64,000 nt of DNA from an uncultured Candidatus Saccharibacteria bacterium (GTDB lineage: Bacteria; Patescibacteriota; SICC01; CAYSOT01), in the NCBI GenBank assembly GCA_964432765.1, contig CAYSOT010000001.1, positions 66,096-130,095 on the forward strand, read 5' to 3'. Both the position numbers and the translations under genes were made by a program. The notes beneath the pieces were generated by a model that was not told the origin of the DNA, did not search any database, and worked only from the letters and a program-made list of their open reading frames with translations. Below, piece after piece: positions 11,930 through 17,074 of this stretch (position 1 is the first letter of the stretch; each line of letters opens with the position of its first letter).

Positions 11930-12035
11930 TATGGGAAAATACCACCATTAAGGTATTTTTGCAAATAGAGGAGAGACACAATCCCATTCTAGTAAGGTCT
12001 CTCTACGATTGCGAGCGGGCAACAAGGCCAAGATG

Positions 12036-12108
12036 TGGCAGTGGGTGGATTCGAACCACCGACCAACAGCTTATGAGTCTGCTGCTCTAACCACTGAGCT
12101 ACACTGCC
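12036..12108 (-). tRNA. tRNA with CAT anticodon (elongator tRNA-Met or tRNA-Ile2)
   Basis: RC = GGCAGTGTAGCTCAGTGGTTAGAGCAGCAGACTCATAAGCTGTTGGTCGGTGGTTCGAATCCACCCACTGCCA. It folds as a cloverleaf: G1-C72 closes a 7-bp acceptor stem, a T-arm GGTGG/CCACC is present, and the anticodon loop is cuCAUaa. The CCA end is not encoded. Confidence 0.85.
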
Positions 12109-12183
12109 GGGTTTAGACGCCAAAGCGGCGCACATCAAGTATGCCGAGCTTCGGGATGAACCTCAAGCGTGCTGCCAACCTTG

Positions 12184-12255
12184 TAGCGGGGGCAGGACTC
12201 GAACCTGCGACCTCGTGGTTATGAGCCACGCGAGCTGCCACTGCTCCACCCCGCA
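12184..12255 (-). tRNA. Initiator tRNA-fMet (CAT)
   Basis: RC = TGCGGGGTGGAGCAGTGGCAGCTCGCGTGGCTCATAACCACGAGGTCGCAGGTTCGAGTCCTGCCCCCGCTA. It is very similar to E. coli tRNA-fMet (CGCGGGGUGGAGCAG...CCCCCGCAACCA). Position 1 is unpaired with 72, as expected for an initiator, and the anticodon stem carries G-C pairs. Confidence 0.85.
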
Positions 12256-12305
12256 TCGTGCGTACGTCGTACGGTACCTTATGGTACCTCCTCCATAGCG
12301 CTCTA

Positions 12306-12710
12306 TCAAGCGTTGTGACTACCAAAGAAGTAGCGCCACCATGCCTCTGGGTTCGACGGGGGCGGTGTTGGCTTTGTCTCGATTCCTGGACGAGTAAGGT
12401 TTGAAGAGTCATCACCTGTCGGCATCGGCACTACGATCACTCTCTCACCAGGTTTTTGATAGTTTAGTCTGGTCCGGGCTTCTTTTTCTTTAAACGAATC
12501 TGTTCGGTAATACGCGGTTAAGTTCTTAAGCTGGGTGTTTTGCTCTTCAAGCGAGCTTATCTCATTCTTTAGAGAAATTCTGTCTTGGTGAATTCTGTAG
12601 TTTTCAACGATCAGCTTTACCGACCCGAGCAGTAGATAGCCGATCACAATAAGAGCAAAGATATTGCCGGAACGTTGCCTGATCCATGAACTGATGTTTG
12701 ATTTCGCCAT
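12306..12710 (-). CDS. ftsB: Septum formation initiator (FtsB/DivIC-like) protein
   Basis: It has a single N-terminal TM helix (IFALIVIGYLLLGSV) and a coiled-coil segment ISLKNEISSLEEQNTQLKNLTAYYRTDSFKEKEARTRLNYQKPGE. The KEKEAR...LNY..PGE tail is typical of FtsB/DivIC. Confidence 0.65.
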   Translation of the reverse strand: MAKSNISSWIRQRSGNIFALIVIGYLLLGSVKLIVENYRIHQDRISLKNEISSLEEQNTQLKNLTAYYRTDSFKEKEARTRLNYQKPGERVIVVPMPTGDDSSNLTRPGIETKPTPPPSNPEAWWRYFFGSHNA

Positions 12711-12742
12711 ACGGCTCTAGCCTACACTACCGAATCGTCTTG

Positions 12743-12815
12743 TGGGCCCGCTAGGACTTGAACCTAGGACCTACCGGTTATGAGCCGGCTGCTCTAACCA
12801 CTGAGCTACGGGCCC
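12743..12815 (-). tRNA. tRNA with CAT anticodon, resembling tRNA-Ile2 (lysidine, LAU)
   Basis: RC = GGGCCCGTAGCTCAGTGGTTAGAGCAGCCGGCTCATAACCGGTAGGTCCTAGGTTCAAGTCCTAGCGGGCCCA. This is a good cloverleaf and is strikingly similar to E. coli ileX (GGCCCCUUAGCUCAGUGGUUAGAGCAGGCGACUCAUAAUCGCUUGGUCGCUGGUUCAAGUCCAGCAGGGGCC). The choice between Met and Ile2 identity is not certain. Confidence 0.8.
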
Positions 12816-12829
12816 GAATTGTATCTCCA

Positions 12830-13144
12830 TTATGCGACAGCATCGTCTCGTGTGGCAGTCCGCCACACCCACAACCCTAGCAGCGCCCCAACAAACGAAC
12901 CAATCAAGTTGCCGTATGTCAGCGGTCCGTTCGAGACAGCGATGCGAGCCTCAACGGCCATGAGATATCCTGCACAGATGGCGCTGAGTATGCCCACAAC
13001 CAAGAGTGCAGCTACACCACCTGTAGCTCTGCGCCTCGATAATAAATAGCTTAGAACTGCGGCCACTGCACCGCAGATAGACCAGCTAATCAGAAATGTT
13101 GTCATATTATTTAACGCTGTCCGCTTCGAGATAGACTTTCTCAC
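12830..13144 (-). CDS. Small membrane protein, GlsB/YeaQ/YmgE (transglycosylase-associated) family-like
   Basis: It has two or three Gly/Ala-rich TM helices (ISWSICGAVAAVLSYLL; ALLVVGILSAICAGYLM; IGSFVGALLGLWVW). The probable start is Met at about 13105. Confidence 0.45.
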   Translation of the reverse strand: MRKSISKRTALNNMTTFLISWSICGAVAAVLSYLLSRRRATGGVAALLVVGILSAICAGYLMAVEARIAVSNGPLTYGNLIGSFVGALLGLWVWRTATRDDAVA

Positions 13145-13679
13145 CCTTCAACTTGGCGGTCAGGGAAGAATCGTTGTCTGGCCAATTTTGTTCTGTTTTC
13201 CACGTTGCCAGCTGGTCCTTAAACTCAACTATTTTGCCACGAACTGTTGCCGACGAAGTCGGGATAGAATCTTTCCAGCGAACCCAAAGGTAGGTGCCAT
13301 CCTGATCTTGAAGAAAGAAGCCAACACCCTGAACTGGGTTGGTAACCTTACCCACCACATCAACGTTTTTGTCTATGAACTGGGTCGGGGACTTATTGAT
13401 ACCGGAGACGGTAGTGCTTGGTTGAGCGGCGGACTCTACTTGGACCGAAGGTGTCGGGGTGACGAGCTTCTGCTCAATTGCGCTGAGCCGATCGTTGATC
13501 TTCTGCAGATCTTTATCGCTCGAAGAACCATTTGGAATGATCGCGCTGATGATCCAACTGACTATCAAACCGACAACGATGCCCGCAATGAAAACATTTC
13601 GGACCCGGTTTGAGCTGGAATAGCGAGCTGCCGCCATGCCTGTACTATATCGCGAAGTGTTAAATTCTGCGATATCCAA
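13107..13679 (-). CDS. Membrane-anchored hypothetical protein (N-terminal TM, extracytoplasmic beta-rich domain)
   Basis: The TM helix is VFIAGIVVGLIVSWIISAII, followed by a hydrophilic domain. There is no recognisable catalytic motif. Confidence 0.45.
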   Translation of the reverse strand: MDIAEFNTSRYSTGMAAARYSSSNRVRNVFIAGIVVGLIVSWIISAIIPNGSSSDKDLQKINDRLSAIEQKLVTPTPSVQVESAAQPSTTVSGINKSPTQFIDKNVDVVGKVTNPVQGVGFFLQDQDGTYLWVRWKDSIPTSSATVRGKIVEFKDQLATWKTEQNWPDNDSSLTAKLKGEKVYLEADSVK

Positions 13680-14332
13680 TACCAGAGCCGTACTGTGTGT
13701 GCGGTTTCAGCCGCCGCCTGTGTGCGTACCTGCTTGGCCGCTCGTTCACATTCGGCATCCCCAGATTGTTGAAAACTCTGTATTGACCAGCTTTTTCCAG
13801 TTGCTAGGATGGCTGCGACACGGAGCGCAATGGAGATTCTTGCAATCACATTCTTCCCGCGACATACCCGGCTAACGGTCCGGTTTCGTCACCACCTCTA
13901 CTCCGGACAGCTCCCCACTCTCGCTACATCACTCATCTCAATGCTCCCCTCATTACGGGAGCATCTTTGTACAAACGCCCGCGGGCTTTCATTTGAACAA
14001 GAATTACACGACACCGAACTGGGACATGTGTTCGAGCATGTGATGCTCGCCATACTGGCTGATCGAGGTCTGTGTACACGGGGTCAAACGACCTGGAATT
14101 GGCATCGCGATCCAGTCGGAACGTACCATGTCACTATTTCGACCGGCAGAAAAATGTTAGTGAAAGAAAGCTTGCTCGTCGCCCAGGCGCTCTTCACGAA
14201 TGTGCTCGTAGGTCCGCCTTTGTCGGTTTGCTGTGGGGAAGGACTCTACCGGTCAGCCACCAGAGAAGAGGCACTTTCTGGTGCCCCAAGAACCGTGCTG
14301 GCGATAACCAGATAGATATGCCTGTATCGTTC

Positions 14333-14369
14333 TTAAAATAAAACCGGCGAAGCGCCTGAGCTTCGCCGG
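14333..14369 (-). terminator. Rho-independent terminator (minus strand)
   Basis: A perfect 10-bp stem CCGGCGAAGC/GCTTCGCCGG with a 6-nt loop is followed on the minus strand by TTTTATTTTAA. Confidence 0.7.
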
Positions 14370-14625
14370 TTGTCAGATGTCGATGGATCTTCGGAGTGCT
14401 CAAACCCCATTGATGAGGTGGGTGTGTGCCACCTCGACCCTCGAGTCGAGATGAGCAACAGTCCCTATGTTGAACGTGTTGGAGTCGCCCTGCCGAAGAC
14501 CCTATATGTAAAGGATATCCGCCCTAGACATTACTGCGTCTGCTTTTGGGAGACGATGGAAGTACTTCCAAACTTTTCCGCATCTCATCGTTTTCTTTTG
14601 GGAAAACACTTTGAGTTTTCCACCA

Positions 14626-14652
14626 TCAAAAACGCCCCGCAGCAGCGGGGCG
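14626..14652 (-). terminator. Rho-independent terminator downstream of the KGG stress-protein gene
   Basis: The stem CGCCCCGC/GCGGGGCG (8 bp, loop AGCA) is followed on the minus strand by TTTTTG. It lies 18 nt after the stop of ORF 14670..14897. Confidence 0.7.
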
Positions 14653-14669
14653 CTCATGTTTTAATTCTT

Positions 14670-14897
14670 TCAGGCCGCAGTGCCGCGACGACCCGCTTTG
14701 CCGCCCATGCGACCGATTTTGGCAAAGTATGAACTACCTCGCTTTGCGGTCACTTTACCTCCGGCCTTACCAATCATCGCCATATTGTGCGTTGTGGCAG
14801 TTTTTTTGCCGCCTTTGCTGGCTACCTGTCGCACGCGCTCTGGTGTCATTGATGCGAATCCACGTCGAGATTTGGACATACGTACCTCCTTAAACAA
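14670..14897 (-). CDS. KGG-repeat general stress protein (YciG-like)
   Basis: MSKSRRGFASMTPERVRQVASKGGKKTATT...GKAGGKVTAKRGSSYFAKIGRMGGKAGRRG contains repeated KGG/GGK stress-induced motifs. Confidence 0.7.
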   Translation of the reverse strand: MFKEVRMSKSRRGFASMTPERVRQVASKGGKKTATTHNMAMIGKAGGKVTAKRGSSYFAKIGRMGGKAGRRGTAA

Positions 14898-14991
14898 CTA
14901 AGTAATTATGTTTGTATGGTACCACCCTACGCTGAGATAGCACTGAGGAGCTTTAGTGAACCTTACAATTTTTTCGACCCTGCCTTGGAAG

Positions 14992-16119
14992 CTACTCGAG
15001 ATCAAGCAGAGTAAGGGCAATTTTCAGTTGGACTGCATCGTCAAATGTTTCCGGGTCGAGCCCGATAAGCTCACGAATCTTTCCGAGGCGGTAGATAAGC
15101 GTGTTGCGATGTATGTGTAGAGCTTTTGAAGCGTTAGTGAGATTGAGACTATGTTCGAAATAGCCACGCAGAGTTTTTGTAAGATCTGGATCTTTCAGCA
15201 TGGGCGCAAGCGCTCGCTTAGCTATTTGTACCTGCTTATCCAAATCCAGATCAGCAAAGACGATGTTCAGACCAATATCGTCGATGTAGTACGCTTTTCC
15301 GGGCTCGTAGAGCTTCGAGCCGAGGCGAAGTGCCGCCGCAGCTTCACGGTATGAAGTTAAAAGCCCTTCGATACCAAGGTGCAAACCACCGATACCAACC
15401 GTAATACCCGCCCCAAGATTAGCCATCATTTGCTGCGCCTTTTGCCTGAATAGATCTAGGGTTTCGTCGTTTCTAGCAGCGTCCTTCAAAATAAGAAACG
15501 TGTTATAGCCAAAATAGGTGACCGTGTTGTCGCTTGAAGATGGAAAGAGGGCCGTAATCTCACGGGCAAGCTTTTCCTTGAAACGCGCTATCGGTTCATT
15601 TTTATCAGCAGCAGGGGCAAGTTTATCTTGGAAATCAGGGACTTCAACAAGGGTCACAAATCGTTGTTTTGTGAGATCTATGCCGAGCAGCTTGGCTTCA
15701 TCGACTAGGCGTTCTCGCTCTGCATCGCTCAAGCTGTGAAAAAGCTGCCACAGTACCTGATCAAGACTCTCTGTAACCCTTTGTTGAGACTCTTGTTCCA
15801 GCAGCAGTTCAGCAAAGCTCTTTGTCACGGGAACAACGTCCTTAACGTGGGGCAGGTCGCTATGCAGCACAAGCCCAGCAACTATTTCACCGCCTTGTCT
15901 GAGCGGAATGACGACTGCTGAGTCACCGTCGAGTTCGAATATGTCGCCTTTTGTGAGAGATCCAGAAACACCGGACAGCATGGATCCGGCAAGATTTGGG
16001 TCGTAAGAAGCTATTAATTCGCCGCTTGGGCTTACAAGGCTCGCATCACGCCCCAAAAGACTCATCACCTGAGTGACGAGAGTTTTCGCAAGATGCGGAC
16101 TAATGGTCTGCATACGCAT
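14992..16119 (-). CDS. CdaR/PucR-family transcriptional regulator (C-terminal PucR HTH)
   Basis: The C-terminus LNLTNASKALHIHRNTLIYRLGKIRELIGLDPETFDDAVQLKIAL is the PucR-type HTH. The N-terminal region resembles a CdaR sugar-diacid sensing domain. Confidence 0.7.
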   Translation of the reverse strand: MRMQTISPHLAKTLVTQVMSLLGRDASLVSPSGELIASYDPNLAGSMLSGVSGSLTKGDIFELDGDSAVVIPLRQGGEIVAGLVLHSDLPHVKDVVPVTKSFAELLLEQESQQRVTESLDQVLWQLFHSLSDAERERLVDEAKLLGIDLTKQRFVTLVEVPDFQDKLAPAADKNEPIARFKEKLAREITALFPSSSDNTVTYFGYNTFLILKDAARNDETLDLFRQKAQQMMANLGAGITVGIGGLHLGIEGLLTSYREAAAALRLGSKLYEPGKAYYIDDIGLNIVFADLDLDKQVQIAKRALAPMLKDPDLTKTLRGYFEHSLNLTNASKALHIHRNTLIYRLGKIRELIGLDPETFDDAVQLKIALTLLDLE

Positions 16120-16210
16120 GGTGCACTATACACTAGCCGATTGCTCCAGTGATGTCTTGGATGTTTTCCTGTTGCTCCGAGTGAGCAGCGCGAGTATCAT
16201 TGGGCGCACT

Positions 16211-16606
16211 ATGAACGAGCGCATCACCGTTTTGCTGATTGAAGACGATCCCATGTTGACCGAACTGTATCAGACAAAACTGGAAATGGATGGATACGAT
16301 GTGCACGTCGTAACCGACGGAGAGGCGGGAATCTCCACAGCTCAACGCGTTGTGCCACAGCTGATCCTTCTCGACATTATGCTCCCAAAGCTTAATGGGT
16401 TTGAGGTCCTCAAGTCGCTGAAACAGGATCCGAACACAGCCTCCATTCCTGTAATCGTGGTGACTAATCTTGGTGGATCTAAGGCCGACACTGACAAAAA
16501 GCTTGCTCTTTCACTCGGCGCTGAAGAGTTTTTAGTGAAAACGTTTCATTTGCCTGACGACATTGTCGGAAAAATCCAAGCAGTTCTTGCAAAAAAGCAG
16601 GCTTAG
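16211..16606 (+). CDS. Single-domain response regulator (CheY-like receiver)
   Basis: MNERITVLLIEDDPMLTELYQ...LLDIMLPKLNGFEVLKSLK...PVIVVTNLG carries the receiver acidic pocket and the conserved Lys. There is no output domain. The track ORF begins at 16073, but the conserved domain starts at Met 16211. Confidence 0.8.
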   Translation: MNERITVLLIEDDPMLTELYQTKLEMDGYDVHVVTDGEAGISTAQRVVPQLILLDIMLPKLNGFEVLKSLKQDPNTASIPVIVVTNLGGSKADTDKKLALSLGAEEFLVKTFHLPDDIVGKIQAVLAKKQA

Positions 16607-16689
16607 TTATCCACCATCTGTCCACATGGTGCTGTTCTTCATGGATTTTCTAAGTTAACTAGGCAAAACAGAGACCAGATGCGGCTTGC

Positions 16690-16718
16690 TTGACATGGTC
16701 AGTCGCCAGAATTATGCT
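16690..16718 (+). promoter_or_regulatory. Sigma70-like promoter candidate (TTGACA - 17 nt - TATGCT)
   Basis: The -35 TTGACA is at 16690-16695 and the -10 TATGCT at 16713-16718, with a 17-nt spacer. A small ORF lies 57-66 nt downstream. Confidence 0.4.
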
Positions 16719-16774
16719 GCAGACCCTACTTTTGTGGGAGCAGCAGATAGAGATAAACCGCCGGAGGCGGTTCT

Positions 16775-16966
16775 TTGCGCACAATGCAACCTCTCTACGT
16801 CCAACAATTGCTCAAAGTCCTTATTGAAGAGTATGAAGATATCGATTTCATGCTGAGTGCACTTGATAGTACGAGCAAACGTGACGCTGAATCGATCCGC
16901 CAACTACTGACAGTGCTCGGCACAAAAAACCGAGCGCTCATCGCTCGCTTTGATGCCGTAGATTGA
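16775..16966 (+). CDS. Small hypothetical protein (63 aa)
   Basis: The ORF has a GGAGG motif 8 nt upstream and a candidate promoter, with no similarity I recognise. The ATG at 16784 is an alternative start. Confidence 0.3.
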   Translation: MRTMQPLYVQQLLKVLIEEYEDIDFMLSALDSTSKRDAESIRQLLTVLGTKNRALIARFDAVD

Positions 16967-17074
16967 CATACGGCGCATTTGTTGCTACGCTACGGGGCTT
17001 TCCTTGAAAGCACCCAGCGGTCGTTCGGACTTCCCCCCTTGGTCTGAACGTCCGCATTTGGGTATGGTAAGAGT

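Follow-up and report, generated by a model that had tools for sequence, protein, structure and literature searches.

A candidate miniature 6S-like RNA gene beside a KGG stress-protein gene in Saccharimonadia

In a 64,000-nucleotide (nt) stretch of the genome of an uncultured Candidatus Saccharibacteria bacterium (contig CAYSOT010000001.1; the whole stretch is called the window below), a gap of about 260 nt lies on the minus strand between two intrinsic terminators, downstream of a gene for a KGG-repeat stress protein. We are confident that this gap contains a real, independently transcribed gene for a structured small RNA (sRNA) on that strand. Comparison with relatives also gives a fairly good probability that the RNA would work as a decoy for RNA polymerase of the 6S/Ms1 type, and a moderate one that it belongs to the 6S type proper, as a miniature, clade-specific 6S-like RNA. 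The segment has promoter-like boxes of presumed activity, a terminator of its own, covarying base pairs and no conserved open reading frame (ORF), the marks by which an independent sRNA gene is recognized. The original prediction had named an independently terminated non-coding transcript as the first of two options, and the boxes, the terminators, the covariation and the fixed start of the first helix support that option. Of the ~260-nt segment, only about 187 nt are predicted to be RNA; the upstream ~90 nt resemble promoter or operator DNA.

The structured RNA and its conservation

Both bounding terminators are real minus-strand signals, as had been claimed: each forms a hairpin of about -22 kcal/mol with a U tail on the minus strand. 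Terminator 1 (14623-14652, minus strand), which belongs to the KGG transcript, has an 8-11-bp G+C-rich stem at 14652-14633 that reads CGCCCCGC-UGCU-GCGGGGCG, with UGCU as the loop, and is followed on the minus strand by the tail UUUUUGAUGG (-22.0 kcal/mol in RNAfold). A terminator scan put this site on the plus strand only; it is on the minus strand, however, that five consecutive U's occur, immediately past the KGG gene. Terminator 2 (14335-14371, minus strand), the RNA's own, has a stem at 14371-14342 (AACCGGCGAAGC / GCUUCGCCGGUU) with a 6-nt loop and the tail UUUUAUUUU (-22.8 kcal/mol); the strong hairpin and U-tract described for it were confirmed, but its stem is 12 bp long and not 10 bp. 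Because this U-tract is found on the minus strand only, terminator 2 ends something that arrives from the KGG side. Ten terminator-like sites were counted in 12000-17000, compared with 4.3 +/- 1.6 expected.

The absence of any minus-strand ORF of more than 30 codons wholly between the terminators was also borne out; the two minus-strand ORFs that overlap the region run into a terminator. The ORFs that overlap the gap are located at 14458-14333 (minus strand, 41 aa, TTG start), 14657-14502 (minus strand, 51 aa) and 14370-14732 (plus strand, 120 aa). A conserved small ORF in relatives had been named as a finding that would speak against an RNA, and tblastn revealed none: the 41-, 51-, 69- and 120-aa ORFs had no significant match in any relative, and a protein-coding reading of the gap was ruled out on this ground. 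A public Logan assembly of this organism annotates the 120-aa ORF as protein-coding (L080, 1906-2268). The ORF runs antisense to the RNA gene as well as to terminator 1 and the KGG gene, and it is almost certainly a false gene call.

The conservation and covariation analysis proposed at the outset found the same element, in the same place, in 15 further Saccharimonadia genomes or contigs, with strong covariation. These loci were gathered by a genome scan (L001-L008), a metagenome scan (L084) and exact-protein look-ups (L164-L172), and the PucR/CdaR-family regulator gene of the neighbourhood (14992-16119, minus strand; Pfam HTH_30, GGDEF_2 and Diacid_rec) served as the syntenic anchor. The PucR homologues, which come from Patescibacteria/Saccharimonadia metagenome-assembled genomes, are 52-66% identical to that of the window at the loci with the element. 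Carriers of the element include JANWJF010000001, JBBDXB010000006 and JAABUS010000002. The shared gene order is PucR, KGG, the gap, a convergent gene for a protein resembling the cyanophycin-synthase N domain, a gene for a 180-aa protein and DivIC; the gap measures 250-530 nt across relatives and holds a well-conserved element of about 200 nt. nhmmer E-values for the element ranged from 1e-6 to 1e-53, including sequences outside the profile's training set. The covariance model R1, for which the window sequence and its fold were the only input, recovered all 16 copies full-length (28-66 bits, E = 1e-13 to 3e-4) and nothing else in 805 kb, and the 64-kb window contained no further copies.

The predicted primary transcript of ~187 nt occupies 14335-14522 on the minus strand, with its start placed near 14521 from the -10 position (+/- 2 nt) and its end from terminator 2, and folds with a minimum free energy (MFE) of -74.9 kcal/mol (z = -5.6). 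It is composed of a short 5' leader, a 118-nt core, a 13-nt linker and the terminator hairpin. The leader (14503-14527, minus strand) corresponds to the 5' hairpin P3 and the AUUCACAA linker of relatives, and its hairpin is vestigial in the window (GGAUAUCC). P3 is present in 14 of the 16 members (it is absent in L165 and L170) and covaries among relatives, with GGACG/CGUCC, CGGUC/GACCG, UGGAC/GUCCA, GGAUC/GAUCC and CGAAUC/GAUUCG as its forms. The core (14502-14385, z = -3.9) is a rod, 115-125 nt long across the family, whose predicted primary transcripts reach ~175-190 nt with the 5' hairpin and the terminator.

Read along the minus strand, the rod begins with the 5' strand of the closing stem (14481-14502; GGGUCUUCGG-C-AG-G-GCGACUCC), which ends in an invariant CUCC, with its CC at 14482-14481, and is the putative template for a product RNA (pRNA). 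The 5' strand of a central bubble follows (14466-14480; AACACGUUCAACAUA), G-poor and beginning with a conserved NAC-A, and then a terminal stem-loop (14420-14465) with a GGG/CCC base, an internal loop, a ~15-bp stem and a tetraloop. The 3' strand of the bubble (14409-14419; ACCUCAUCAAU) forms the conserved CCCACCU motif together with the preceding CCC, and the 3' strand of the closing stem (14385-14408; GGGGUU-UGA-GC-A-CU-CCGAAGAUCC), supported by covariation, completes the rod. The closing stem, irregular and 20-24 bp long, was predicted by RNAduplex in each of the 16 sequences singly, and RNAfold, given the 16 sequences separately, predicted the same terminal stem-loop in each, as an arm equivalent to ~20 bp. 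In all 16 members the bubble has 15-19 nt on its 5' strand versus 11-14 nt on its 3' strand, and an equivalent strong terminator hairpin, in most cases with a U-rich tail, is located 10-20 nt after the core. A C/U-rich motif, (C)UUCAUC(C/A), lies between the closing stem and the terminator in L164, L165, L167, L169 and L084 (for example, at ~5029-5045 in L167); the window linker (14372-14384) has AUCGACAUCUGAC instead.

MAFFT followed by RNAalifold recovered the apical hairpin only, from an unfitted alignment; the helices in the MAFFT alignment were out of register, and model-based realignment with R1 was therefore needed. In alignment A7, standard pairs filled 88.9% of the cells, compared with 36-48% when the partners were slid by 1-3 columns. 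Double-sided, compensatory changes were observed in 27 of the 38 base pairs, including 11 of 12 in the outer closing stem (helices 1-3) and 12 of 15 in the terminal stem (helices 4-5), and none of 500 shuffles reached any of these measures. A U.G pair within CUCC/GGGG was invariant in all 14 members that have both sides. The paired columns contained 48 G.U cells versus 28 A.C cells, a bias that, together with the terminators and the promoter boxes, fixes the minus strand as that of the RNA.

Neutral intergenic DNA kept by recent common descent, with terminators that serve the flanking genes only, might be proposed given that the family is phylogenetically narrow in the available data. However, although the flanking proteins are only 52-66% identical, the length of the element, four invariant blocks and 27 compensatory pairs have been preserved, and variability within the element is confined to exactly the helix interiors and loops, so that we regard this explanation as extremely improbable.

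Promoter-like boxes upstream of the RNA

When the upstream halves of the loci were aligned on TAnnnT, a common arrangement emerged: TTTGG, 8 nt, C(C/T)ATCG, 20 nt and TA(T/A)nnT. CYATCG and the -10 hexamer lie 20 nt apart in 14 of the 16 members (19 and 21 nt in the other two), and TTTGG and CYATCG lie 8 nt apart in most members; the spacers themselves are unrelated in sequence. In the window, the box of the -35 region, O2 (14554-14572, minus strand), reads TTTGG-AAGTACTT-CCATCG, with conserved blocks at fixed spacing. It is an imperfect palindrome, TTGG-N8-CCAT, centred at about -42.5 from the predicted start and fixed at 38 nt from the -10 hexamer, and its block arrangement has a single exact match in the 64-kb window. 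Farther upstream lies O1 (14611-14626, minus strand), a palindrome-like candidate regulator site that reads ATGG-N8-TCAA in the window and TTGG-N8-CCAA in the family consensus; a box of this type is located 42-44 nt upstream of O2 in 12 of the 16 members, and 55 nt upstream in the window. The operator palindrome is not enriched in the window as a whole (110 matches versus 91 expected).

The -10-like hexamer reads TAATGT in the window (14528-14533, minus strand); its forms in the family are TATAGT, TATCGT, TAATGT, TACAGT, TAGCGT, TATCAT, TACGCT and CATACT, always with A at position 2 and T at position 6. In all 16 members, 6-7 nt separate this hexamer from the start of the first RNA helix downstream, and in L165 and L170, where the 5' hairpin is missing, it is the closing stem itself that begins at this distance. 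Because this distance is kept in every member, we read the hexamer as a -10 element.

The same features bear on whether the RNA might be a structured 3' untranslated region (3' UTR), or a processed 3' fragment, of the KGG messenger RNA (mRNA), produced by read-through of terminator 1 without a promoter of its own. Such an RNA could act in cis on the stability of the KGG mRNA or, by convergent transcription, on the cyanophycin-synthase-N-like gene. In 12 of the 16 loci the KGG terminator stands directly against the TTTGG box with no spacer, a canonical -35 hexamer is absent, and in L001-L008 the convergent ORF extends at its 3' end into the RNA's terminator, all of which would suit a 3' UTR. 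In the window, L169, L170 and L172, the KGG gene has a distinct terminator ahead of the boxes; in the other loci the KGG terminator hairpin lies between the two palindromes. However, terminator 1 is strong (-22 kcal/mol with five U's), a pairing of the -10 block with the 3' tail, checked by eye, lost register, and the first helix follows TAnnnT by 6-7 nt throughout. Moreover, the upstream blocks are exactly spaced while their spacers vary freely, which is the behaviour of a DNA signal and not of an RNA structure. A 3' UTR is thus very unlikely in our judgement.

The tandem O1 and O2 boxes look like an operator for a dimeric regulator, and the palindromes may be sites for an activator-type regulator that stand in for the -35 hexamer. 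The adjacent PucR/CdaR-type protein is a candidate for this regulator, by a speculative guess. Several other interpretations of the upstream region were tried and rejected. A sigma-54 reading of the boxes (TGG...TGC) has the wrong spacing, and no canonical sigma-70 -35 hexamer is present at 17 bp. A hairpin, P2, in the 20-nt spacer forms in some G+C-rich members only, and because it is not conserved we read it as spacer. An outer helix, P0, in which the UAUCGUG block (read here as the -10 hexamer) would pair with the tail beyond the core, seemed compensatory in four sequences; it was dropped because its register shifts in L169/L170, the block keeps a fixed spacing in the manner of a DNA signal, and the first helix follows the block by 6-7 nt.

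Resemblance to 6S RNA and competing readings

6S RNA (SsrS, RF00013), by which most bacteria sequester RNA polymerase, is a rod in which a large central bubble separates a closing stem from a terminal stem, and the same rod is supported by covariation in the new RNA. The RF00013 model aligned to one relative, L164, over model positions 40-147 with a weak score of 21.9 bits; the E-value was 0.016 when 401 nt were searched and 2.3 for 55 kb. In this alignment, CC, GGG, CCCACCU and GG, all conserved in the family, fall on upper-case consensus positions of RF00013: CUCC tops the closing stem, GGG/CCC lies at the foot of the terminal stem, the 3' bubble strand starts with CCCACCU, and GGGG closes the bubble. 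Compared with Escherichia coli 6S RNA, the family has C-C-A/U-A-C-A for C40-C41-G-A-U44-A45, and CCCACCU and GGGUU(U/A)(G/C) for CACCU and GGGUUAC. Likewise, CAUUCACCU and GGGUUACAGCC in the E. coli RNA compare with CCCACCU and GGGGUUUGAGC or GGGUUACGC in the family.

U44 of E. coli 6S RNA is the position at which its pRNA starts. Two features are common to the pRNAs of distant bacteria: GG at positions 4/5 (or 5/6), and an adenine that flanks the start (PMC8414754). With a start assumed opposite the third bubble nucleotide, the predicted pRNA would begin with 5'-(G/A)U(U/A)GGAGU(C/U)GC in all 16 members, and, at the level of sequence and for this assumed start, GG falls at positions 4/5 in all 16 and the flanking A is found in 15. 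The predicted 5' ends are GUUGGAGU, with 5'-GUUGGAGUCGC in the window and 5'-GUAGGAGUUGC in L005-L007.

A mechanism can be proposed on this basis, every step of which is a prediction. RNA polymerase would bind the rod as it binds a promoter, the RNA mimicking an open promoter, and would be sequestered, for example, during stress or slow growth. On recovery, the polymerase would take the 5' strand of the closing stem as a template, starting opposite the conserved C that is the third bubble nucleotide (14478 in the window), and would make a short pRNA, 5'-GU(U/A)GGAGU(C/U)GC.... This product would displace the GGGGU strand and free it to pair with the 3' bubble strand at its conserved ACCU; the bubble would collapse and the polymerase would be released. 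According to the literature, a structural rearrangement of this kind is how 6S RNAs eject polymerase. In the new family, the GGGU partner of CUCC is also complementary to the conserved ACCU on the 3' side of the bubble. The MFE fold of the window RNA pairs ACCUCA of the 3' bubble strand (14409-14419) with UGGGGU (14403-14408) and not CUCC with GGGG, and this alternative hairpin, which also forms in most members, is what a release mechanism would need. Because the alternative pairing is itself the MFE fold in the window, the RNA would be poised between two mutually exclusive conformations even without a pRNA.

The 6S RNAs termed 6S-Flavo and Bacteroidales-1 have separate Rfam models. As with the new RNA, clade-specific 6S variants and the non-canonical 6S-like transcripts of Weissella are found poorly by the general model; the Weissella transcripts were recognized by synteny, a -10 box and a terminator, as reported in the literature. 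Those variants and transcripts are full-length (~180-210 nt), whereas the new family is shorter and comes from Patescibacteria. A further likeness concerns the genomic setting: the 6S genes of lactic acid bacteria reported in the literature have their own promoter and a Rho-independent terminator and lie beside a stress gene (uspA), and the new RNA, with its promoter-like boxes and terminator, would have the same arrangement beside the KGG gene.

A number of observations weigh against placing the RNA in the 6S family. The gathering score of RF00013 (46.4 bits) was not reached, the best score being the 21.9 bits of L164, one of the 16 members, and the other 15, the window copy included, gave no RF00013 match at E <= 10. 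The Rfam scan suggested with the original prediction, run at gathering and at permissive thresholds on the window and 11 relatives, found no family that covers the locus at threshold and a single sub-threshold match, to 6S; riboswitches, T-boxes, RNase P, tmRNA and SRP gave no match in these searches. In the reverse direction, the family model R2, with filters off, missed E. coli ssrS (L175, 984-1166), and its best score elsewhere was <=8 bits. The rod of 115-125 nt is ~40 nt below the shortest known 6S RNA: according to the literature, 6S RNAs measure 160-200 nt, that of Aquifex (~160 nt) is among the shortest, and a length of '<150 nt' has been used to exclude candidates; ~175-190 nt are reached by the predicted transcript only when the 5' hairpin and the terminator are counted in. 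The terminal arm of E. coli 6S RNA is about twice as long as that of the new RNA, and an arm of ~20 bp may be too short to reach the site of sigma region 4. Unlike in 6S, the 3' bubble strand of the new RNA is short (11-14 nt) and lacks a built-in hairpin, 14 of the 16 members carry an additional 5' hairpin, the terminator hairpin is retained and ygfA/fau is not a neighbour. The pRNA start site is assumed by analogy with U44 of E. coli. Furthermore, the structure to which the covariation alignment was fitted came from the window sequence itself; the same helices are supported independently, because the single-sequence folds agree. Finally, among the loci scanned the family is known from one Saccharimonadia clade only, and ~55 more distant loci from Saccharimonadia or the candidate phyla radiation (CPR) lacked the element within the +/- 6 kb around the PucR homologue that was scanned. 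The RNA is outside RF00013 as that model currently stands.

These observations leave some room for a structured sRNA with a function unrelated to RNA polymerase, such as a base-pairing regulator, a sponge or a protein scaffold. Its conservation, promoter, terminator and covariation would suit any stable sRNA, its membership of the Rfam 6S family and the reciprocal search both fail, and the rod is shorter than any known 6S RNA. The bubble strands, which are single-stranded, C-rich and conserved, might also pair with other RNAs: exposed C/A-rich segments (CCACCU, ACUCC-AACA) could act on G-rich sites, for example, ribosome-binding sites. However, the anti-Shine-Dalgarno-like CACCUC occurs in the window copy only, with CCACUU, CCACCA or CCGCCC in the others, and an anti-Shine-Dalgarno mimic was rejected on this ground. 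The most conserved block, GCRACUCC, is base-paired and not exposed, and the four blocks that fall on the 6S consensus, together with the pRNA hallmarks, would be left unexplained. We consider this possibility doubtful, although worth keeping in mind.

A second relative to consider is Ms1, a 6S look-alike of Actinobacteria that binds core polymerase and, in the literature, is 'by definition' not 6S. An RNA of this type would use the same rod-and-bubble mimicry to bind the polymerase core without the primary sigma factor. Ms1 is a rod with a central bubble and short 5' and 3' hairpins, an arrangement matched here by the 5' P3 hairpin, the rod and the 3' hairpin, and Ms1 itself was initially taken for 6S on structural grounds. 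Like the new RNA, it was found by synteny and not by sequence and is a clade-specific replacement or relative of 6S. By contrast, Ms1 shares no sequence or synteny with the new RNA, it is far longer (~300 nt versus ~187 nt), and the pRNA template hallmarks are a feature of 6S. An Ms1-type RNA is accordingly improbable as a distinct explanation, and we treat it as a sub-case of the polymerase decoy, because sequence alone cannot separate the two.

A further alternative, which we hold only tentatively and think rather unlikely, is that the RNA is no 6S orthologue but a new Saccharimonadia-specific RNA that mimics a polymerase target or binds another protein, and that would be switched on together with the KGG gene by a dedicated regulator acting through tandem TTGG-N8-CCAA operators. 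The adjacent PucR/CdaR-type protein would then be the candidate regulator, and the locus could constitute a compact dormancy module in these ultra-small episymbionts.

Neighbouring genes and significance

The KGG gene (14670-14897, minus strand; Pfam PF10685 KGG, E = 2.8e-5) is the upstream neighbour of the RNA element in all 16 loci according to tblastn synteny and gene calls, and its true start is likely to be the ATG at 14879, which gives a 69-aa protein. On the other side lies the convergent, stand-alone cyanophycin-synthase-N-like gene (13809-14315, plus strand; Pfam PF18921, E = 1.6e-11), whose synteny is kept and whose stop codon is 27 nt from terminator 2. Its product is 138-202 aa long across the loci, in all of which the gene is conserved and converges on the RNA gene; its last ~15 codons overlap the terminator hairpin of the RNA in L001-L008. 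The window copy has no plus-strand U-tract terminator of its own. Farther along, three tRNA-Met (CAT) genes lie within 800 nt on the minus strand (12035-12108, 12183-12255 and 12742-12815), with a DivIC/septum-formation-initiator gene (12710-12306) between the second and the third; the three CAT tRNAs are probably of the initiator, elongator and tRNA-Ile2(CAT) types.

A response-regulator receiver gene (16073-16606, plus strand) is divergent from the PucR-type gene, and a large GAF-PAS histidine kinase gene is also present upstream of PucR in most relatives (L083, L164, L166, L167 and L169-L172). This block is syntenic from the kinase and the response regulator through PucR and KGG to the RNA, and its genes may form a single stress-signalling module.

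Very few regulators are known in the Patescibacteria (CPR), whose genomes measure ~1 Mb. Rfam does not annotate the locus, and we found no literature that ties 6S RNA to Saccharibacteria, the CPR or Patescibacteria, apart from one incidental co-mention. The fixed-spacing boxes offer the first concrete candidate for a promoter/operator architecture in this clade. If the RNA is a working decoy of the 6S type, annotators would gain a covariance model for a gene that at least one public assembly misannotates as a 120-aa protein, and the mimic would prove to be shrinkable to a rod of ~118 nt, a new lower size limit that would be useful for structural work. It would also mean that global control of transcription by an RNA decoy is kept even in minimal episymbionts.

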